From a virus (taxonomy: Duplodnaviria; Heunggongvirae; Uroviricota; Caudoviricetes): a stretch of DNA of 64,000 nucleotides. The notes under the pieces are model-generated. The model searched no databases and had not been told where the DNA came from. It saw only the letters and a program-made list of their open reading frames with translations. A program made the translations under genes and the position numbers. Of the stretch, positions 2,830 to 62,410 are shown piece after piece. Location: positions 169,787 through 233,786 of the IMG/VR virus record IMGVR_UViG_3300015214_000024. One strand, 5' to 3'. How positions within the stretch are numbered: the stretch's first letter is position 1; every line of letters begins with the position of its first letter.

Positions 2830-3975
2830 ATGAAAATTTCAATACCAATTTACTTTTTCACAGGCCTGGCGGCCATTTCAATGGCTTGTGTTGCAGCTTT
2901 TTTTAGTATTACTGGTTTGGCCGCACTGTATGCAGCCGCCGCCGTACCTGTTATTGTAATGGGATCTTGTATTGAATTTAGCAAAATAGTATCAACAGTT
3001 TGGTTGCATCATTTTTGGAAAAAGTCTAATTTCTTGATGGTCGGCACACTGATGTTAATGGTAGTTGCCAGTATGGCTGTCACTAGTGGCGGTGTTTATG
3101 GATATTTGACTGGATCACACGCCAGCCAAGAAGCACCAAATCAACAAAAACAATTAGTAGCTGATAGAATTGACCAACAACTTGCTGTAGAGCAGGATAA
3201 AATCACACGATATCAAGATCGATTAAAATCATTAGATGAAATAGTATCAACTTCGTTAACTCAAGGCAGATATAGTAGCTCAGCAGCGGATAGAATTAAT
3301 CGACGCCAAGCATCAGAACGAAGCCAAATTCAAGAAGAGATAGATGCGACGTATAAACGTATTGACGCCCTTTCAGCACAAAAACTTGACGTAAATCAAG
3401 AACAAAGTATGAGCGAAGCAAAGCTTGGTGCTGTAAAATATCTTGCAGCGTTATTTGGTGCCGACACTTCGAATGCAGTTATGTACTTCACTTTGATTAT
3501 GGTTTTGTTACTTGATCCGTTTGCTATTATTTTAGTCATCGCAACCCAAGTAGCATATGATAATCGTAAAAAGGTAAATGAACCAGTAAAGAAAAGAAAA
3601 TTAATTGCGCCTGAAATACCTGACGAGATTGTTGAAAAATTAGATAATGGCGACGAGTTACCGCCATTTGTTCCCACATTGGACAACGGACCAGAATCTG
3701 CAGACACGTTGGAAGGTCCAACCGATTATGTAATGCATCCAAATAGTGACGAAACAATAGAAGATAAAAAAGAAAAAATAGTTGATTTCTTTAATGATGA
3801 TGAAATTAAAAATGGCATTAATAATGCCGAAGATGAGACTATAATTAAAATTGATGAAGTGGTTAATTCATCCAACATTAGTGATGACGAAAAGGTTGCA
3901 CAAGTATTAAATGCCTTGGGTTCAACTTTATCTCCTGATCGAATGGAAGAAGTTAAGAAACGCTGGTTAGATTGA
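2830..3975 (+). CDS. Membrane protein with coiled-coil region
   Basis: Three N-terminal TM segments, coiled coil, one later TM. Confidence 0.7.
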   Translation: MKISIPIYFFTGLAAISMACVAAFFSITGLAALYAAAAVPVIVMGSCIEFSKIVSTVWLHHFWKKSNFLMVGTLMLMVVASMAVTSGGVYGYLTGSHASQEAPNQQKQLVADRIDQQLAVEQDKITRYQDRLKSLDEIVSTSLTQGRYSSSAADRINRRQASERSQIQEEIDATYKRIDALSAQKLDVNQEQSMSEAKLGAVKYLAALFGADTSNAVMYFTLIMVLLLDPFAIILVIATQVAYDNRKKVNEPVKKRKLIAPEIPDEIVEKLDNGDELPPFVPTLDNGPESADTLEGPTDYVMHPNSDETIEDKKEKIVDFFNDDEIKNGINNAEDETIIKIDEVVNSSNISDDEKVAQVLNALGSTLSPDRMEEVKKRWLD

Positions 3976-54118: not shown

Positions 54119-54202
54119 TCTCCCTACTACTGGTAGGTCTAGTAACGTGACTTTGAATCACGGGTGCGCGGACGCGCAAAGGTTCGAATCCTTGAGGGAG
54201 AT
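54119..54202 (+). tRNA. tRNA-Gln(UUG) with long V-arm
   Basis: CGUGA-CUUUGAA-UCACG plus extra arm. Confidence 0.75.
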
Positions 54203-54221
54203 CAAATTTGAGGTATTGATA

Positions 54222-54905
54222 ATGAAAACTTTTACATATGCTATTGGAGATATACACGGTCGATTGGACCTTTTGGTTAAATCGATTGAACTGATTGAGC
54301 ATCACCGTTTACAGAATGATGCATATGCTATAGTTGTATTTTTGGGAGACTACGTTGATCGTGGCCCGAACAGCAAAGAAGTGTGTGATATTTTAATGGC
54401 CGGACCAAATACTGAAAATACTGAATGGATTATACTCCAAGGAAATCACGAAATAATGTTAATTGAAGCTGGTCTAGGCGGTTTTTCTGAACAGAAATTT
54501 TGGCTTAATAATGGCGGTCAAGAAACGCTTAGCAGTTTTGGTGGCTATCGGGAAATGATTCCATATATCAAATGGATGCAAAATTTAACAAAATATTACT
54601 ATGATGGTGAACGTGTATTTGTTCACGCTGGCATTAAAGACGGTGTTCCATTAGAGCAAACGCCTGAGGCTGTGTTACAATGGATAAGATATCCTGATGA
54701 ATATGAGCCTAATTCCCCTTTAGGTTATTTGGTTCACGGTCACACTCCTAAAATGGGCCAGCCTTTGATTCTAAAAACCAGGTGTGATTTAGACGTCTGG
54801 GGAGTCGCTACTGGTAAAGTATGTGTTGGCGTTTTTGAAAAGGGCATCCCGGGCGGCCCGATTGATTTATTGGAAGCCAATATGGGATATAGAGCACTTG
54901 ACTAA
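54222..54905 (+). CDS. Ser/Thr protein phosphatase-type metallophosphoesterase
   Basis: GDIHG, GDYVDRG, GNHE, VHAG, HGHTP. Confidence 0.9.
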   Translation: MKTFTYAIGDIHGRLDLLVKSIELIEHHRLQNDAYAIVVFLGDYVDRGPNSKEVCDILMAGPNTENTEWIILQGNHEIMLIEAGLGGFSEQKFWLNNGGQETLSSFGGYREMIPYIKWMQNLTKYYYDGERVFVHAGIKDGVPLEQTPEAVLQWIRYPDEYEPNSPLGYLVHGHTPKMGQPLILKTRCDLDVWGVATGKVCVGVFEKGIPGGPIDLLEANMGYRALD

Positions 54906-54956
54906 CTAGGTCATCTTTGCTATATCAATGGGTGTGATTAACAGTAAGGAAATATA

Positions 54957-55532
54957 ATGACAATTCTCCGTTGGGATAAACCGAAAAAAGTGATGACCGC
55001 CCAGCAATGGGGTGAGCATTATGGTTTTGATGGCGGCCCCATTGGTGGTTATGCCCCAAATATGAGTGAAGCTGACCAGCTTTCCTGGAAAGCCAAAATC
55101 ACCGGTAAAAAACTTGGATTCCCGCAGGTAGAGATTCGAAAGACTACTGAACGTGGTAGTCAGGTAGTAATTATTATCAATTTGGGCGCTGGATATAATT
55201 ACAAGTATTATCGAGCGGTTGATGATGATTATACTAAGTACGCTGATTATGCTGATTATTTGGCACAGGAAGGTGCCCATTATCATCAAAAATATCCTCA
55301 ACAATATCCCACTCTTCAGGATGGCATTGATTTTATTTCCGAATGTGGTGATGAAGAAGGATTTTGGCGTTGCAAATATCCCACGAAAGGGATCAATGTT
55401 CATATAGCTACGAACGGCCCAATTCAAATGACTTTTGATGAAATGATGGATATGCAAAAGGCCATTGAAGAAGCAAAAGTAGCACTTACTAGTTTAGAGA
55501 TTGCACCAAGCTATGCTAAAAAAACTGGCTAA
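54957..55532 (+). CDS. Hypothetical protein
   Basis: 191-aa ORF with promoter and RBS. Confidence 0.7.
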   Translation: MTILRWDKPKKVMTAQQWGEHYGFDGGPIGGYAPNMSEADQLSWKAKITGKKLGFPQVEIRKTTERGSQVVIIINLGAGYNYKYYRAVDDDYTKYADYADYLAQEGAHYHQKYPQQYPTLQDGIDFISECGDEEGFWRCKYPTKGINVHIATNGPIQMTFDEMMDMQKAIEEAKVALTSLEIAPSYAKKTG

Positions 55533-56138
55533 TCTTTTTATATCAATATATGAATTCCTTTATAGAGGATATGAATTTGCCACATTTCAGCATTTTAAAT
55601 TGGGTGAATATGAAATTCATTATCTAATTGATTGCGGTGCTGGTTATATGGGCGGTGTAGATACCGTAGCGGCTTGTAGTGTGAAAGATGCATTAAAAAG
55701 TCATCGACAACACGATGTAGAAGCAGTATATTGCGATGGTGAGTTAGTATATGCTGCCAGCTGGGCTGATATACAAAGTTTAGATTGAGAGATGTATGCC
55801 CATAATTTATGAACCAAAACCAGAAACTTGGCAAGATGCAGTATTTCGTATCTGTTCAAATTTGAATGATGAAGAAATTAAAACCTTGAAAGAAAATAGC
55901 TATGCACTATTTCACCACGGCCTGGGCACTAGTATCCGAAACAACTGGGACCTGTGGGATGAAACGTCATCATTGTATAAATCATTTCAGAATGACCTTG
56001 GTTTGACACACGCTGACGATATGAGTGGTATTATTCTTCGTAGTGCAGAAGCTACTGCTAAAGGTGAACCAGTACAATGTAAAGAATGGGCTGGAGAATA
56101 TTTAAAATATTGGGAACAGTGCAATAAATAAAATATAT

Positions 56139-56211
<73 letters not shown>

Positions 56212-56400
56212 CAATTATTACAGTGTAACCGCGGAATAGCACTGTGTTGGCAAACGGCATCAATTTAGCCAGACTATAGGTTTGAAATTGGCTGTTCGGA
56301 CCCCATACTGGTAGGATGGCAAAGTCGTGCACCTATTGGTTGGTGGCTACGTGATTAATCACATATAATGAGGTTGGGCCAAAATACTGTAATAATTAAT

Positions 56401-56476
56401 GCTGTTGTAGCTCAGTGGTAGTAGCACTTCATTGGTAATGAAGAGGTCGTGGGTTCAATCCCCACCAACAGCACCA
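56401..56476 (+). tRNA. tRNA-Thr(GGU)
   Basis: Loop UUGGUAA. Confidence 0.92.
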
Positions 56477-56740
56477 GATAAATATTTGTACTTTGAGGCA
56501 CAAATAAAGAGGATCATCAAATGTCATACCCAAATGTATCTGATCACGAAAGTAGAATTGCTGCGCTTGAATCAAGAATTGAAGCACTTGAAGGTCAATC
56601 ATCATCTGACAATAGCCTGCTTCAATTTTTGGCTAAATTGAAGAAGTGGTTCCCATTTATTAGATAATAGTGTGGCCCGATGGGCAGAGCTCGGTCGCTC
56701 CGAGATAGAGTTATAGTTTCTGTACACTGAAACTGCGTAT

Positions 56741-56817
56741 GCCCGAGTAGCTCTTCTGGTGAAGACACTTGCTTTACACGCAAGTTAAGGTGAGTTCGAT
56801 CCTCACCTCGGGTACCA
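56741..56817 (+). tRNA. tRNA-Val(UAC)
   Basis: Loop UUUACAC. Confidence 0.9.
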
Positions 56818-57283
56818 AATTTTAGAAAGACATATTATGAAAGTCCAAATTGATCTAAAAGTTCTTGAAAATTTAATCGAAGCTCTTGAATTTTATGCAA
56901 ATCCTGACACTTATTGGGCTTGCAGTTTTATGTTTGATCGACCGACTGGTGGCTTTGATGAAGATTTTTCAGACCACCAAGAATATAAAGATTTCTTGGA
57001 TGGATCTGCTCCTGATTGCTATTATGAAGACAGGGAAAGGCCAGGAAAGACTGCACGTATTGCGTTACGTGATTATGATACTAATCCTGCCATACCAGTT
57101 GAAGGTGAAGAATGATAGATTTATTTTTTATCTTCATAATGTTAATAATGGGCGGCTGTATGGGCTACAGTCTCGGACGCCACCCTGGTAAGAATGTTTT
57201 TGATAAATTTATGTTTATGATAGAACAAACTTGCAGAGAAGATTTGACAGACGATAAGAAATAAGTTAGTATAAAGAATACAT

Positions 57284-57358
57284 TGCCCGGTAGTTCAATG
57301 GTGGAACACTAGACTTTGAATCTGGGGGTTGTAGGTTCGAGTCCTACCCGGGCATCCA
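57284..57358 (+). tRNA. tRNA-Gln(UUG)
   Basis: Loop CUUUGAA. Confidence 0.92.
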
Positions 57359-58135
57359 AGTTGGTTCATTCGGATTTAGGTTCGGGTGGTCAATGGCTCC
57401 TATTAGGACCAACGCCCAAGGGATTAATCCACGCCGTTGCTCTTCTGATAGATCAGTATGTTGACACAGGCTTGTATTTCCTTGTTAGAAAACAAGGTGG
57501 CGGAACGGATGTTCTTTTGAATTTAGGAGGCTTCGTTCGTGAAGCCTCCTTTTCCTTTGAGTGGAGAGTATATGACTGACGAAGTTGAAATGTTCAGGAC
57601 CGAAGAAGAAGCAAAAGAATATTGGGACGATGTTACTCTTCGTGCAGATATTATCGAAGGTGTAGTCCGAACACTAATCGTAGCCAAGGATGGCACGTAT
57701 AATCGCAACAGCGATGCATCATTTGATCGGTTTGATATCAGGTCTGCGGTAGCGATGGCGCTTAGCCTTTATACTGACAAGAACCTTGAATTGATTGAAA
57801 TGATGAACAAAGTCACAACACGTGATTGACTTTAATTTCCTAAAAGTTTAATATCCTTTTCTACAAGATAGGAAAGTTTATGAATCCGCCAGCAAAAGAC
57901 AAGTCGCCCATTGACGATTTCATTGGACCATTTTCTAAGAAACATCACGTTATTGCTGAAATTCTAAGTCCAGGACTTTGGTCTGAGTCATCTCACGAAC
58001 ACGTTAATTGGTGTTTGTGGGCTAAACAGTCTTTTTATCGTCGAAATACATATTTTGGCGTGCAATTTTGGTTTAAGCGTGTAGATGCGTTAGAACAAGC
58101 TGATAAAATCATTAAGGCTATTGAGGAGATTGAAA

Positions 58136-58882
58136 GTGAATGATAAATTTGAAAAACTGATCGATCGCCTTAGCCAAAAGATACGGCTTTCGGCTAATCC
58201 AGTTCCCGGATTTATTGTTGGTTTGAGTGGGACTGATTCAATCGTCACATTTATACTTCTTTATGAAGCCTTGAAGCGCTACAATCGCGAAGATCGTCTT
58301 TATGGTATTCATTACGTTAATGAATATCGAAAAAAGCCATCGTGGTTTGAAAAAGATATTATTCCTTGGTTGGCGGAAACTTATCCAAACACTCGGCTTG
58401 AAGTCCATACACCATTAGGTGGAAATTTTGATCAACAACGATGGGCTGATTTACATTTACGGGCATTGAATGAAATTGTTGTAAACGGGTTTGGTGAAAA
58501 GAAACTAAAGTTATTTGATCCTGGGCAAAACTACTGGGTTTCTGGTTGTATGAATGCCACTGAAAAAGCTCTTGGAAATTACAGCATTTTATCCAATAGC
58601 GTAAGCATTCAGCCCATTCAGACAATTTACAAGGGAGAAATTTTGGATATTTGTGTCGAACATAATGTTCCTGAAATTGCTATCGAAATGTCGCAAATTC
58701 CTGACTGCTTCTGTGGTCGAGAAGAAATTGCTGCTCACAATGTTCGTTTGATTGATGAAATTATCACTTACAAGTTGGATCCTTCAAAATATGATCCAGA
58801 ATTGCTGGCTGAAGTTTATGCCTATGTTCAAGAAACTAAGCGAGCCAATGATTTCAAAAACAGGACACCATTTAACGTATGA
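58136..58882 (+). CDS. NAD synthetase-like PP-loop protein
   Basis: VGLSGTDS PP-loop; NATE..LG.Y; QPI..YK.EI. Confidence 0.6.
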   Translation: MNDKFEKLIDRLSQKIRLSANPVPGFIVGLSGTDSIVTFILLYEALKRYNREDRLYGIHYVNEYRKKPSWFEKDIIPWLAETYPNTRLEVHTPLGGNFDQQRWADLHLRALNEIVVNGFGEKKLKLFDPGQNYWVSGCMNATEKALGNYSILSNSVSIQPIQTIYKGEILDICVEHNVPEIAIEMSQIPDCFCGREEIAAHNVRLIDEIITYKLDPSKYDPELLAEVYAYVQETKRANDFKNRTPFNV

Positions 58883-59532
58883 TTATCCATACTACGTTAA
58901 TTCGACAGCGCCCGGGTGGAAAAATGGTGGGTATGCTTGGCGTATTAAAATATACTGGTGGTGATCTTTCAGGAATAGCTCAAGCATTATATAAACCATC
59001 AAGGATATATAGTGCTTGGCTTTCAATCAAACATTGGAAGAAAGTTACACATTGCGCAACATTATTTTATGATATTAGTAAGCATCAAGAACTTAGCTAT
59101 GAATTACAAAAGTATGGAATCCAGGCCAATCATTCAGAATTTAAGCATTACAATTCAATGAAGGCTAAATTATATTTAGAAGATCACGAAGCTACTGTGT
59201 TAAGAATTATAGCTTGACACGAATATTTGATAGCTGTATAACGACATTATTACGGCAGTTGGTAGTGTGTAACAGGTTCGATCCCTGACCAATTTGTAAT
59301 AGAATTGAGTAAGCCCACACAAATTTTTAGAAAGGTTGAAATGTCAAAGCGTATCTTTAAGCGTTGTGAAGCAATTCAAATACTTAATGATCTTTTTGAT
59401 CCAGACTATATGGATGAATCGGATCGAATTGATTACACCAAGTGGTCAAACGACCAACTTGAAGGTGAGCTTTGTTGCTCAGGCTATATCCACGATGAGG
59501 ATATGGGCGGAGTGGTAAATTAAAAAAAAAAT

Positions 59533-59605
59533 GGACGGTTAGCTCAGTAGGTAGAGCGGGATCCTTTTAAGTTCTTGGCCGGGGGTTCGAATCCCTCACC
59601 GTCTA
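59533..59605 (+). tRNA. tRNA-Lys(UUU)
   Basis: Loop CUUUUAA. Confidence 0.88.
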
Positions 59606-60211
59606 CAGGAGAATAATCAATGATGGACCACTTTAAAACAGTTTTGGCGGTTACCTTCTTTTTTGCCATTTTAGGCGCAACTCTTGGTCCTCTTTTTGGT
59701 TTTCAACAAGTTATAAACCAGAAGCAAGAATGTTATACTCACACTGAATATGACAATACATTTTCATACGGTTGTGCAGGTCTTGGTTTGGTGTCGGGGC
59801 TTGTCCTTGTTTATCAAGAAGTTCGCCGCAATAAGGGTAAGAAAATAGATGATGACACAAAAAGAGATCAATCAGAAGATTGATGATATAGCCAAATGGG
59901 TCAAGCAAGGCCATAGTCAAAGTCCATCAAATTGCCGACTTTTGTTGGCTGAAATCCAACGCCTACGAGAATTAGCGAACACACTACGATGAACGAGAAG
60001 CGATTCTATGTATATGCCAGTTTCTTTAATGGCAAACGCGGCTGGTATAGAATCCGTGGAGTAGATTCTGGTGGCAATTATATTGGCAATTTCCCTGAAG
60101 GTGTTGATAAATTACCAGGTATGAAGTTTTGCCAAGATAGACCAAAAGGCAAACAAGTTAGTGAACACGTGGTCAAAGAATATTTTGGATATGTAGGCAA
60201 GGAGGTCGAAA

Positions 60212-60421
60212 ATGTCAGTTGAGTATAGGTTTTCTGAAGAAGAAGTTCAGGAACGCTTTGACGAAATTATGGATCTAGTTGATAAAGAACGTGCCCACGT
60301 GATTATTACTCGCGATGGGGTAGATGTAGCTGCGCTAATTCCGTATGAAGATTGGGAGTTTTATCAATCACTAATTAATAGTGATTGGAAAGAAGTTGGA
60401 GAGCGTAATGAAGAAGGTTAA
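60212..60421 (+). CDS. Orphan Phd/YefM-family antitoxin
   Basis: E..ERFDEIMDLV...VIITRDG...AALIPYEDWE. Confidence 0.75.
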   Translation: MSVEYRFSEEEVQERFDEIMDLVDKERAHVIITRDGVDVAALIPYEDWEFYQSLINSDWKEVGERNEEG

Positions 60422-61403: not shown

Positions 61404-62105
61404 ATGTCAGTTAGAGCAGCTTTAGCAAAACTTGCCGCGTGTGCGTGTGGATGTGCGGTTATTGGCGGCGGCGCCGTTCACGTCGCTGAAGCACAACGCC
61501 CAGGTATTTTGAAAACTGTTAAGCCTGTCAAAACGGCTAAACATACTCCATCACGCACTGTTAGACGACACCGCACGGTTGTTACTTATAGACCAAGTCG
61601 TACAGAACCGGTTCAATCAGCCCAAGTTACTCAGGTTATAAATGTTATGCCGCAAGCATTGCCAGAGCAGCAAATGGTCAATGCTGGTGGCGGCGCGACG
61701 GCGACGGTTGTTAGTGGTAGTTCTGGTTCTTCTGGATTTTCTGGATCGTTTGGCGGCTTTGGCGGCGGCTTTTTTGGTGGTTCGAGTGGCGGTTCAGTAA
61801 TCATATCATCCACCTCAAGTGGTAGTACAAGTACGTCGACTAGTTCTAGTTCTTCATCAAGTTCAAGTACATCAACGAGCTCGAGCACTTCTGGTGGTAT
61901 TAGCACATCTGGTGGTTTTGGCTCGTCAAGTTCTTCGTCGAGTAGTACAAGTGGTGGGTGGTCAACTTCTACGTCAGGGGGATCGACTGGAAATCCACCA
62001 GTCGACGTTCCTGAACCGTCTTCAGTAATTTTGTTTGGATTGGGAGTTTTGGGTCTAATTGTAGGCAGGAAGCTTTCAACCCCCAAGAGAGATACCATAA
62101 GCTGA
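61404..62105 (+). CDS. PEP-CTERM sorting-domain protein, Ser/Gly-rich
   Basis: VPEPSSVILFGLGVLGLIVGRK C-terminus. Confidence 0.88.
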   Translation: MSVRAALAKLAACACGCAVIGGGAVHVAEAQRPGILKTVKPVKTAKHTPSRTVRRHRTVVTYRPSRTEPVQSAQVTQVINVMPQALPEQQMVNAGGGATATVVSGSSGSSGFSGSFGGFGGGFFGGSSGGSVIISSTSSGSTSTSTSSSSSSSSSTSTSSSTSGGISTSGGFGSSSSSSSSTSGGWSTSTSGGSTGNPPVDVPEPSSVILFGLGVLGLIVGRKLSTPKRDTIS

Positions 62106-62410
62106 GCTATCGCGGGGCAACTCGAGGAAGTTCAGGATTGGCGTGGGAAACGAGTGGGAGAGGTAGTAGGCTTGGATCAGTATGTCAAGCCGAAGAATGC
62201 CATAGTAAGACGTATCGTTCTTTGCTATGGTTCTCGCTAATCACCACCGTGATTGAGCCAACAAGCCAAACAGGACCTGGCAATTTCCCAGTTATAGGTC
62301 CGGGTTGGTGCAGCCCTGAAGCGATAAGCTTCGTGGATAATTCCGGGGCCAGACGTATGTCTGAGACGAATGATAGCATAATACAGAATCCTGGCTATAG
62401 GCTTATGGTA
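62093..62410 (+). ncRNA. rnpB: RNase P RNA (compact)
   Basis: GAGGAAGUUCAGG...CAAGCCAAA...AGACGAAUGAUAGC...ACAGAAUCCUGGCUAU; P1 ACCAUAAGCU/GGCUUAUGGU. Confidence 0.85.

Follow-up and report, generated by a model that had tools for sequence, protein, structure and literature searches.

The window, i.e., the whole stretch of 64,000 nucleotides analysed here (positions 169,787 to 233,786 of IMG/VR record IMGVR_UViG_3300015214_000024), comes from the 455,147-base record (39% GC) of a T4-like jumbo phage. This record encodes a T4-type major capsid protein, by which the closest cultured phage is Sinorhizobium phage Phosso (69.5%), as well as a CCA-adding-type enzyme. The DNA also occurs in landfill metagenomes, from which it may originate. 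ARAGORN detects 69 tRNA genes in the whole genome, and 56-59 lie in the window, every one on the + strand; these tRNA gene calls define an array extending from 10456 to 61385 (+), whose transcripts are the likely substrates of the RNA described below. The order of the tRNAs in the window is roughly sorted by amino acid, and genes for phosphatase-like, NAD synthetase-like and Phd-like antitoxin proteins lie scattered between them from 54147 to 60421. Outside the window, two ARAGORN calls correspond to tRNA-Pyl (G000:C1:15281-15358 and 165512-165586), which are possible amber suppressors.

About 700 bases beyond the last tRNA gene of the array starts a 318-nt gene on the same strand (62093 to 62410, +; ends set by P1) whose product is, almost certainly, a homolog of RNase P RNA, the ribozyme by which newly made tRNAs are trimmed, in a phage form with a reduced specificity domain. 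It is flanked upstream by a PEP-CTERM gene, whose TGA stop codon (62103-62105) overlaps the 5' end of the RNA gene within P1, and on the other side by an ORF without assigned function. The PEP-CTERM protein itself (61404-62105) carries a long Ser/Gly/Thr tract, in which in-frame indels are seen in relatives from RNA libraries. Neither a sigma-70 promoter nor a terminator was found adjoining the RNA gene. Its GC content is 49%, versus 39% for the window, and its folding z-score is -4.0 over 62093-62410, with none of 100 shuffles folding equally well. A 92-codon ORF also overlaps the gene, but a coding reading of this ORF was set aside because indels and covariation within the family of relatives (see below) point to constraint at the RNA level.

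Mapping to a canonical bacterial RNase P RNA (375 nt) allowed E. coli numbering to be assigned. A complete type-A catalytic domain is present, comprising P1-P6, P15-P17, the bulged U69, A248, the GGU of L15, and CR-I, CR-IV and CR-V, with all conserved residues at canonical spacing. The preliminary description had located P1, P2, P5, the P4 strands and the ACAGAA element correctly, while P6, P15 with its GGU, P16/P17 and CR-IV had escaped it. All elements are on the + strand. P1 (11 bp, 62093-62103/62400-62410), whose 5' strand covers the last codons of the PEP-CTERM gene, is followed by P2 (6 bp, 62106-62111/62372-62377), where all six pairs change on both sides among relatives and 98% of cells are paired, and by P3 (3 bp with a GCAA tetraloop, 62114 to 62123), which is read from the sequence and varies widely in length across the family. 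CR-I and the 5' strand of P4 occupy 62124 to 62137, A65/A66 being 62128/62129; P4 itself (8 bp, 62129-62137/62389-62396) covaries across the family and bulges U62132 in the register of E. coli U69. The 3' strand of P4 lies with CR-V in 62383 to 62398, as placed by mapping to the canonical copy, and the ACAGAA element is found at 62383-62388. P5 (5 bp, 62138-62142/62257-62261) begins with a U-A pair here and with C-G in 61 other members, while the P6 pseudoknot (7 bp, 62144-62150/62284-62290), whose 3' strand lies in L17, is supported by motif-anchored pairing and by covariation. J5/15 (CAA, 62262 to 62264), which holds A248 (62263), is invariant in the family alignment and leads into P15 (3 bp), L15, P16 and P17 (62265 to 62309, from family alignment and pairing); the L15 GGU, i.e., G292-U294, the binding site for the CCA of pre-tRNAs, maps to 62303-62305. 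A branched element in the position of P18 and one more hairpin follow (62313 to 62363), in a layout common to four relatives, the P18 position being empty in 43 of the 65 members. Finally, CR-IV (J18/2, 62364 to 62371), with G332/A333 at 62368/62369, is identical to the canonical copy at 7 of 8 positions, with an equal 19-nt spacing.

The specificity domain is a different matter. Between P6 and the 3' strand of P5, no P12-P14, CR-II/CR-III or paired T-loop module is recognisable (a regular expression for CR-II/III words gave too much noise to be of help), and the stub found there (62151 to 62256) consists of a P7 stem (62151-62157/62244-62249; about 75% paired in the family alignment), an internal loop, a variable arm and a linker of 7 nt leading to P5. 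The arm (76 nt, 62160 to 62235; folding z -2.9) contains two hairpins (62169-62191 and 62199-62231). In about half of the relatives measured it is a stem-loop of 7-15 nt and in others it reaches up to about 150 nt, while the whole P5-enclosed region spans only about 55-70 nt in many members. The internal loop is partly conserved across relatives, with GA opposite a GYUAA-like strand. Thus, the earlier view of a divergent specificity domain without clear T-loops holds for the T-loops only: as judged from the sequences, the domain is replaced by a P7 stub and a variable arm rather than merely diverged. This arm is most likely a tolerated insertion site and not a substitute recognition domain. 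Some of its contents are unusual: on contig L444 (5563-5693, +) it holds a tmRNA-like, CCA-ended RNA of about 130 nt, with a G3-U70-type acceptor stem, a T arm and a weak RF00023 match (E 0.011), and a similar insert occurs on contig L389 (within 341-682, -). A substrate nested in its own enzyme is one possible reading of these inserts.

The relatives were collected in several ways. BLAST with this copy gave a single one, located in an unannotated gap of the tRNA cluster of Stenotrophomonas phage DLP6, where it occupies positions 2963-3207 (about 245 nt) of the locus L001 from KU682439.2, and first scans of viral contigs with a CR-IV/CR-V pattern returned chance matches only. Later motif scans, based on CR-I and CR-V and applied without any pairing filter to viral and metagenome contigs, gave 66 motif pairs, corresponding to 65 distinct full members, including this copy, that of DLP6 and one truncated where its contig stops. 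The RNA is found as well in three megaphages from GenBank (595-735 kb). Phosso has no copy at 10 of its 14 motif sites, those that were checked, so this group may be able to do without the RNA. The median length in the family is 230 nt and some members are shorter than 200 nt; at 318 nt, this copy is among the longest, so that the label "compact" given to it at first is apt relative to cellular RNAs (375 nt for the canonical copy) and not within its own family. Neighbouring proteins are mostly without known function. At 58 of the 65 member loci tRNAs are found, versus 15 of 231 chance loci, and 37 members lie within about 20 nt of a tRNA. Besides its RNase P RNA, DLP6 carries a permuted tmRNA (L001:22-254; RF04321, 136.8 bits) that is absent from its feature table and from the paper describing the phage (PMC5349666). 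On two other contigs (L098:2634-3520 and L116:1307-2192, both -), an RNase P-like gene is split just after the 5' strand of P4 by about 610 bases holding an ORF for a 199-aa GIY-YIG endonuclease, and the 5' strand of P5 is seemingly lost; this may represent either disruption by a homing endonuclease or an RNA made of two pieces.

Three members were met in scans of bacterial and archaeal genomes; they look like misbinned phage DNA, a reading that is firm for the first only. This first one lies on a 546-kb contig (L476; G004:C90) of a Bacteriovoracaceae bin, 30 relatives of which all have an ordinary rnpB; the other two are on contigs of 2-4 kb bearing tRNAs. The 546-kb contig, itself probably from a megaphage, encodes SmpB and a CCA-adding-type enzyme in addition to a T4-type capsid protein and the miniature RNase P RNA.

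To assess pairing, 49 members were aligned with plain MAFFT; because of their shared ancestry, the counts are not independent events. In this alignment, 90.5% of cells pair, versus 30-43% in slid controls, and both partners vary in 33 of the 40 pairs. Pairing reaches 94-100% in P2, P4, P5, P15 and the beginning of P16 (its first pairs); it is lower, about 75%, in P6 and P7, which is probably due to misalignment of subfamilies. When P6 is anchored on motifs, strands form on average 6.8 bp with their own partner and 5.3 with mismatched partners. The U-A pair that opens P5 only in this copy is a private compensatory double change, at a pair that was also used as an anchoring tie-break. The bulged U69, A65/A66, A248 and GGU are invariant in the 49 aligned sequences. 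Furthermore, an nhmmer profile built from 28 homologs with this copy held out finds it with 108 bits (E 3e-32) as the sole match in the 455-kb genome. Together with the covariation and the canonical spacing, this upholds the original proposal of a phage RNase P RNA whose catalytic core is intact. That the gene instead resembles one by chance, or is the decayed remnant of a gene captured from a host, is hardly credible, since the held-out profile (E 3e-32), the family covariation and the private P5 pair effectively refute this reading, for which the overlapping 92-codon ORF and the lack of an Rfam match for this copy would speak.

Searches against Rfam, suggested as a check in the preliminary description, gave a mixed answer. 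This copy has no match to an RNase P model, either at the gathering threshold or at E 10, nor in genome-wide searches with RF00010 and RF00373, while homologs do match, below the cutoffs: the DLP6 RNA scores 54.7 bits with RF00010 (RNaseP_bact_a; E 4e-14, cutoff 100 bits), and three others score 49.3, 40.8 and 28.1 bits with RF00373 (RNaseP_arch; cutoff 84 bits). No match to the type T model was obtained in Rfam searches with this copy or its homologs. The extra length of this copy is probably variable cargo, which would account for its being missed while shorter relatives match.

What, then, could this RNA do? The tRNA genes of the phage have U at position -1 in 59 of 69 cases and A at -2 in 48 of 69, against a background of 30% for each base, a leader bias that, at the level of sequence, marks them as RNase P substrates and fits the host RNase P equally well. 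CCA is encoded in 45 of the 69 genes. These tRNAs had at first been considered often atypical, but 68 of 69 keep the D-loop GG and the TTCRA T-loop (by a loose motif test), and the idea that their elbows are atypical was rejected on this ground. Across members, A at -2 reaches 68%, 64% and 55% when position 332 of the RNA is A, G and U, respectively, a comparison confounded by kinship, in which the leader base does not clearly follow the RNA position. As for expression, RNA-library contigs of close relatives (from two studies, on straw and root samples) cover the gene, although contigs cannot prove transcription. One of them begins at 62090, and in another (run X6) the match ends exactly at 62410 and gives way to 153 letters of unrelated sequence, a tail that is either a different downstream sequence in the relative or an assembly chimera.

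On these grounds, the RNA is likely to be a phage RNase P RNA that has lost its specificity domain and acts on phage pre-tRNAs with the help of host RnpA. Neither RnpA nor HARP was detected in five phage genomes, and since no RNase P protein is detected in the phage, it probably borrows that of its host. In the mechanism that we envisage, the RNA would be transcribed together with the tRNA array and freed by processing; its P4 active site, in a structure supported by covariation, would fold braced by P6, and host RnpA would be bound. The 3' CCA of a pre-tRNA would then be anchored at the L15 GGU, without T-loop contact, and its leader at A248 and G332/A333, residues that are all present and whose contacts are modelled on those of E. 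coli. Cleavage of the 5' leaders of the many phage pre-tRNAs would thereby provide extra processing capacity during infection. Studies of trimmed RNAs are compatible with this scheme, as the E. coli catalytic domain alone is active, requires the P6 interaction and can dispense with P18 (PMC5839562); the family, which keeps P6 and lacks P18 in 43 of 65 members, matches these needs. Such engineered catalytic-domain-only RNAs are nonetheless less efficient, by about 500-fold for E. coli and several-thousand-fold for B. subtilis (PMC5839562), and in RNAs with a normal specificity domain, the paired T-loops stack on the tRNA elbow (PMC11143913). Whether the phage RNAs form a natural class of active, catalytic-domain-only ribozymes that work with host RnpA and recognise CCA and leader only is, in our opinion, an evenly balanced question. 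If they do, their substrate range may differ from that of the host enzyme, and nested RNAs can be housed in their variable arm.

An active ribozyme with changed specificity, cutting hairpin-plus-CCA substrates rather than ordinary pre-tRNAs, is an unlikely alternative that nonetheless has a precedent: E. coli RNA deleted for its S domain (delta94-204) cuts, with its protein, pre-4.5S RNA but not pre-tRNA-Tyr (PMC11143913). The substrates would then be tmRNA-like or 4.5S-like RNAs, tRNA mimics, polycistronic spacers or host RNAs, and the two relatives with a tmRNA-like, CCA-ended RNA inside their variable arm would fit. However, the location inside tRNA arrays is conserved, and catalytic domains alone are able to cut pre-tRNA, albeit with weaker binding. 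It is quite improbable that the phage supplies a protein of its own, unrecognisable as RnpA, in place of the host protein or of the specificity domain that was lost: the partly conserved internal loop of the stub could be a protein site and most neighbouring proteins have no known function, but the genome of this phage contains no RnpA family match or RNR motif, and no neighbouring gene stood out as conserved. Very improbable too is a decoy that would sequester host RnpA or bind tRNA 3' ends, thereby disturbing host tRNA maturation, with catalysis being incidental. Such a role would suit an RNA that has lost the domain giving most of the efficiency on pre-tRNA and yet kept the catalytic domain, to which RnpA binds, whereas the invariance of U69, A65/A66, A248 and GGU in the aligned sequences is as expected for catalysis, and RNase P activity is a necessity for a phage that has about 69 tRNA genes.

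Activity on phage pre-tRNAs with host RnpA, our preferred reading, would give large phages 5' maturation as a further part of their translation toolkit. RNase P RNA is regarded as an essential gene of cells, and the literature searched, in which few subscription papers were covered, yielded no report of one encoded by a virus; RNase P is not mentioned in the DLP6 paper (PMC5349666) or in a survey of huge phages (PMC7162821). Here, a widespread natural RNA has retained its catalytic half and shed the specificity half, in what seems to be an event independent of archaeal type T. This stripped-down form makes testable both the contribution of the specificity domain in vivo and the ability of a catalytic domain alone to sustain tRNA maturation. 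Such a test is within reach given the unannotated copy in DLP6, a cultured and sequenced phage, and the members under 200 nt are candidate minimal RNase P scaffolds.

Among known systems, E. coli M1 RNA (rnpB, RF00010) shares with the phage RNA P1-P6, P15-P17, CR-I, CR-IV and CR-V, the bulged U69, A248 and the L15 GGU, and the spacing from CR-IV to CR-V is identical to that of bacterial type A. The phage RNA differs by its lack of a recognisable T-loop platform, P12-P14 and CR-II/III, by the 114 nt (76 of them in the variable arm) that separate its P5 strands, versus 158 nt, by a P2 of 6 bp and a P15 of 3 bp, and by being encoded by a virus. P4 starts with A-U, G-C and U-G, versus A-U, A-U and G-C in bacterial type A, a signature that resembles that of archaeal RNase P RNAs. 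Three homologs indeed score best with the archaeal type A/M model (RF00373). However, this is a T4-like phage, the host of the cultured carrier is a bacterium, and by this model the RNA does not belong to archaeal type A/M, this copy having no match and its homologs scoring 28-49 bits, under the 84-bit cutoff. Nor can it be classed as bacterial type A, given the absence of the type A specificity domain (P8-P14, CR-II/CR-III, T-loops) and scores below the RF00010 cutoff.

Archaeal type T RNAs likewise are missing the greater part of their specificity domain. Those of Thermoproteaceae have a 3-bp P2 and a 2-nt P5/P15 linker (PMC3579882), in contrast to the 6-bp P2 and 3-nt CAA linker of the phage RNA, which on these lengths is not a type T member; moreover, type T works with archaeal proteins, whereas no protein partner was detected for the phage RNA. 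The likeness between the two is thus probably convergent. The engineered Eco CP RPR retains equal parts and depends on P6 and not on P18, but it is a laboratory construct whose efficiency on a model hairpin is lower by about 500-fold (PMC5839562), while the phage RNAs occur in nature and have kept a P7 stub. Finally, the diverged RNAs of CPR bacteria that lack P12 resemble the phage family in missing specificity-domain helices and in being seen only at lowered Rfam thresholds (PMC8172020). These RNAs are cellular, however, and two thirds of them are devoid of the CCA-binding motif (PMC8172020), which the phage family keeps.
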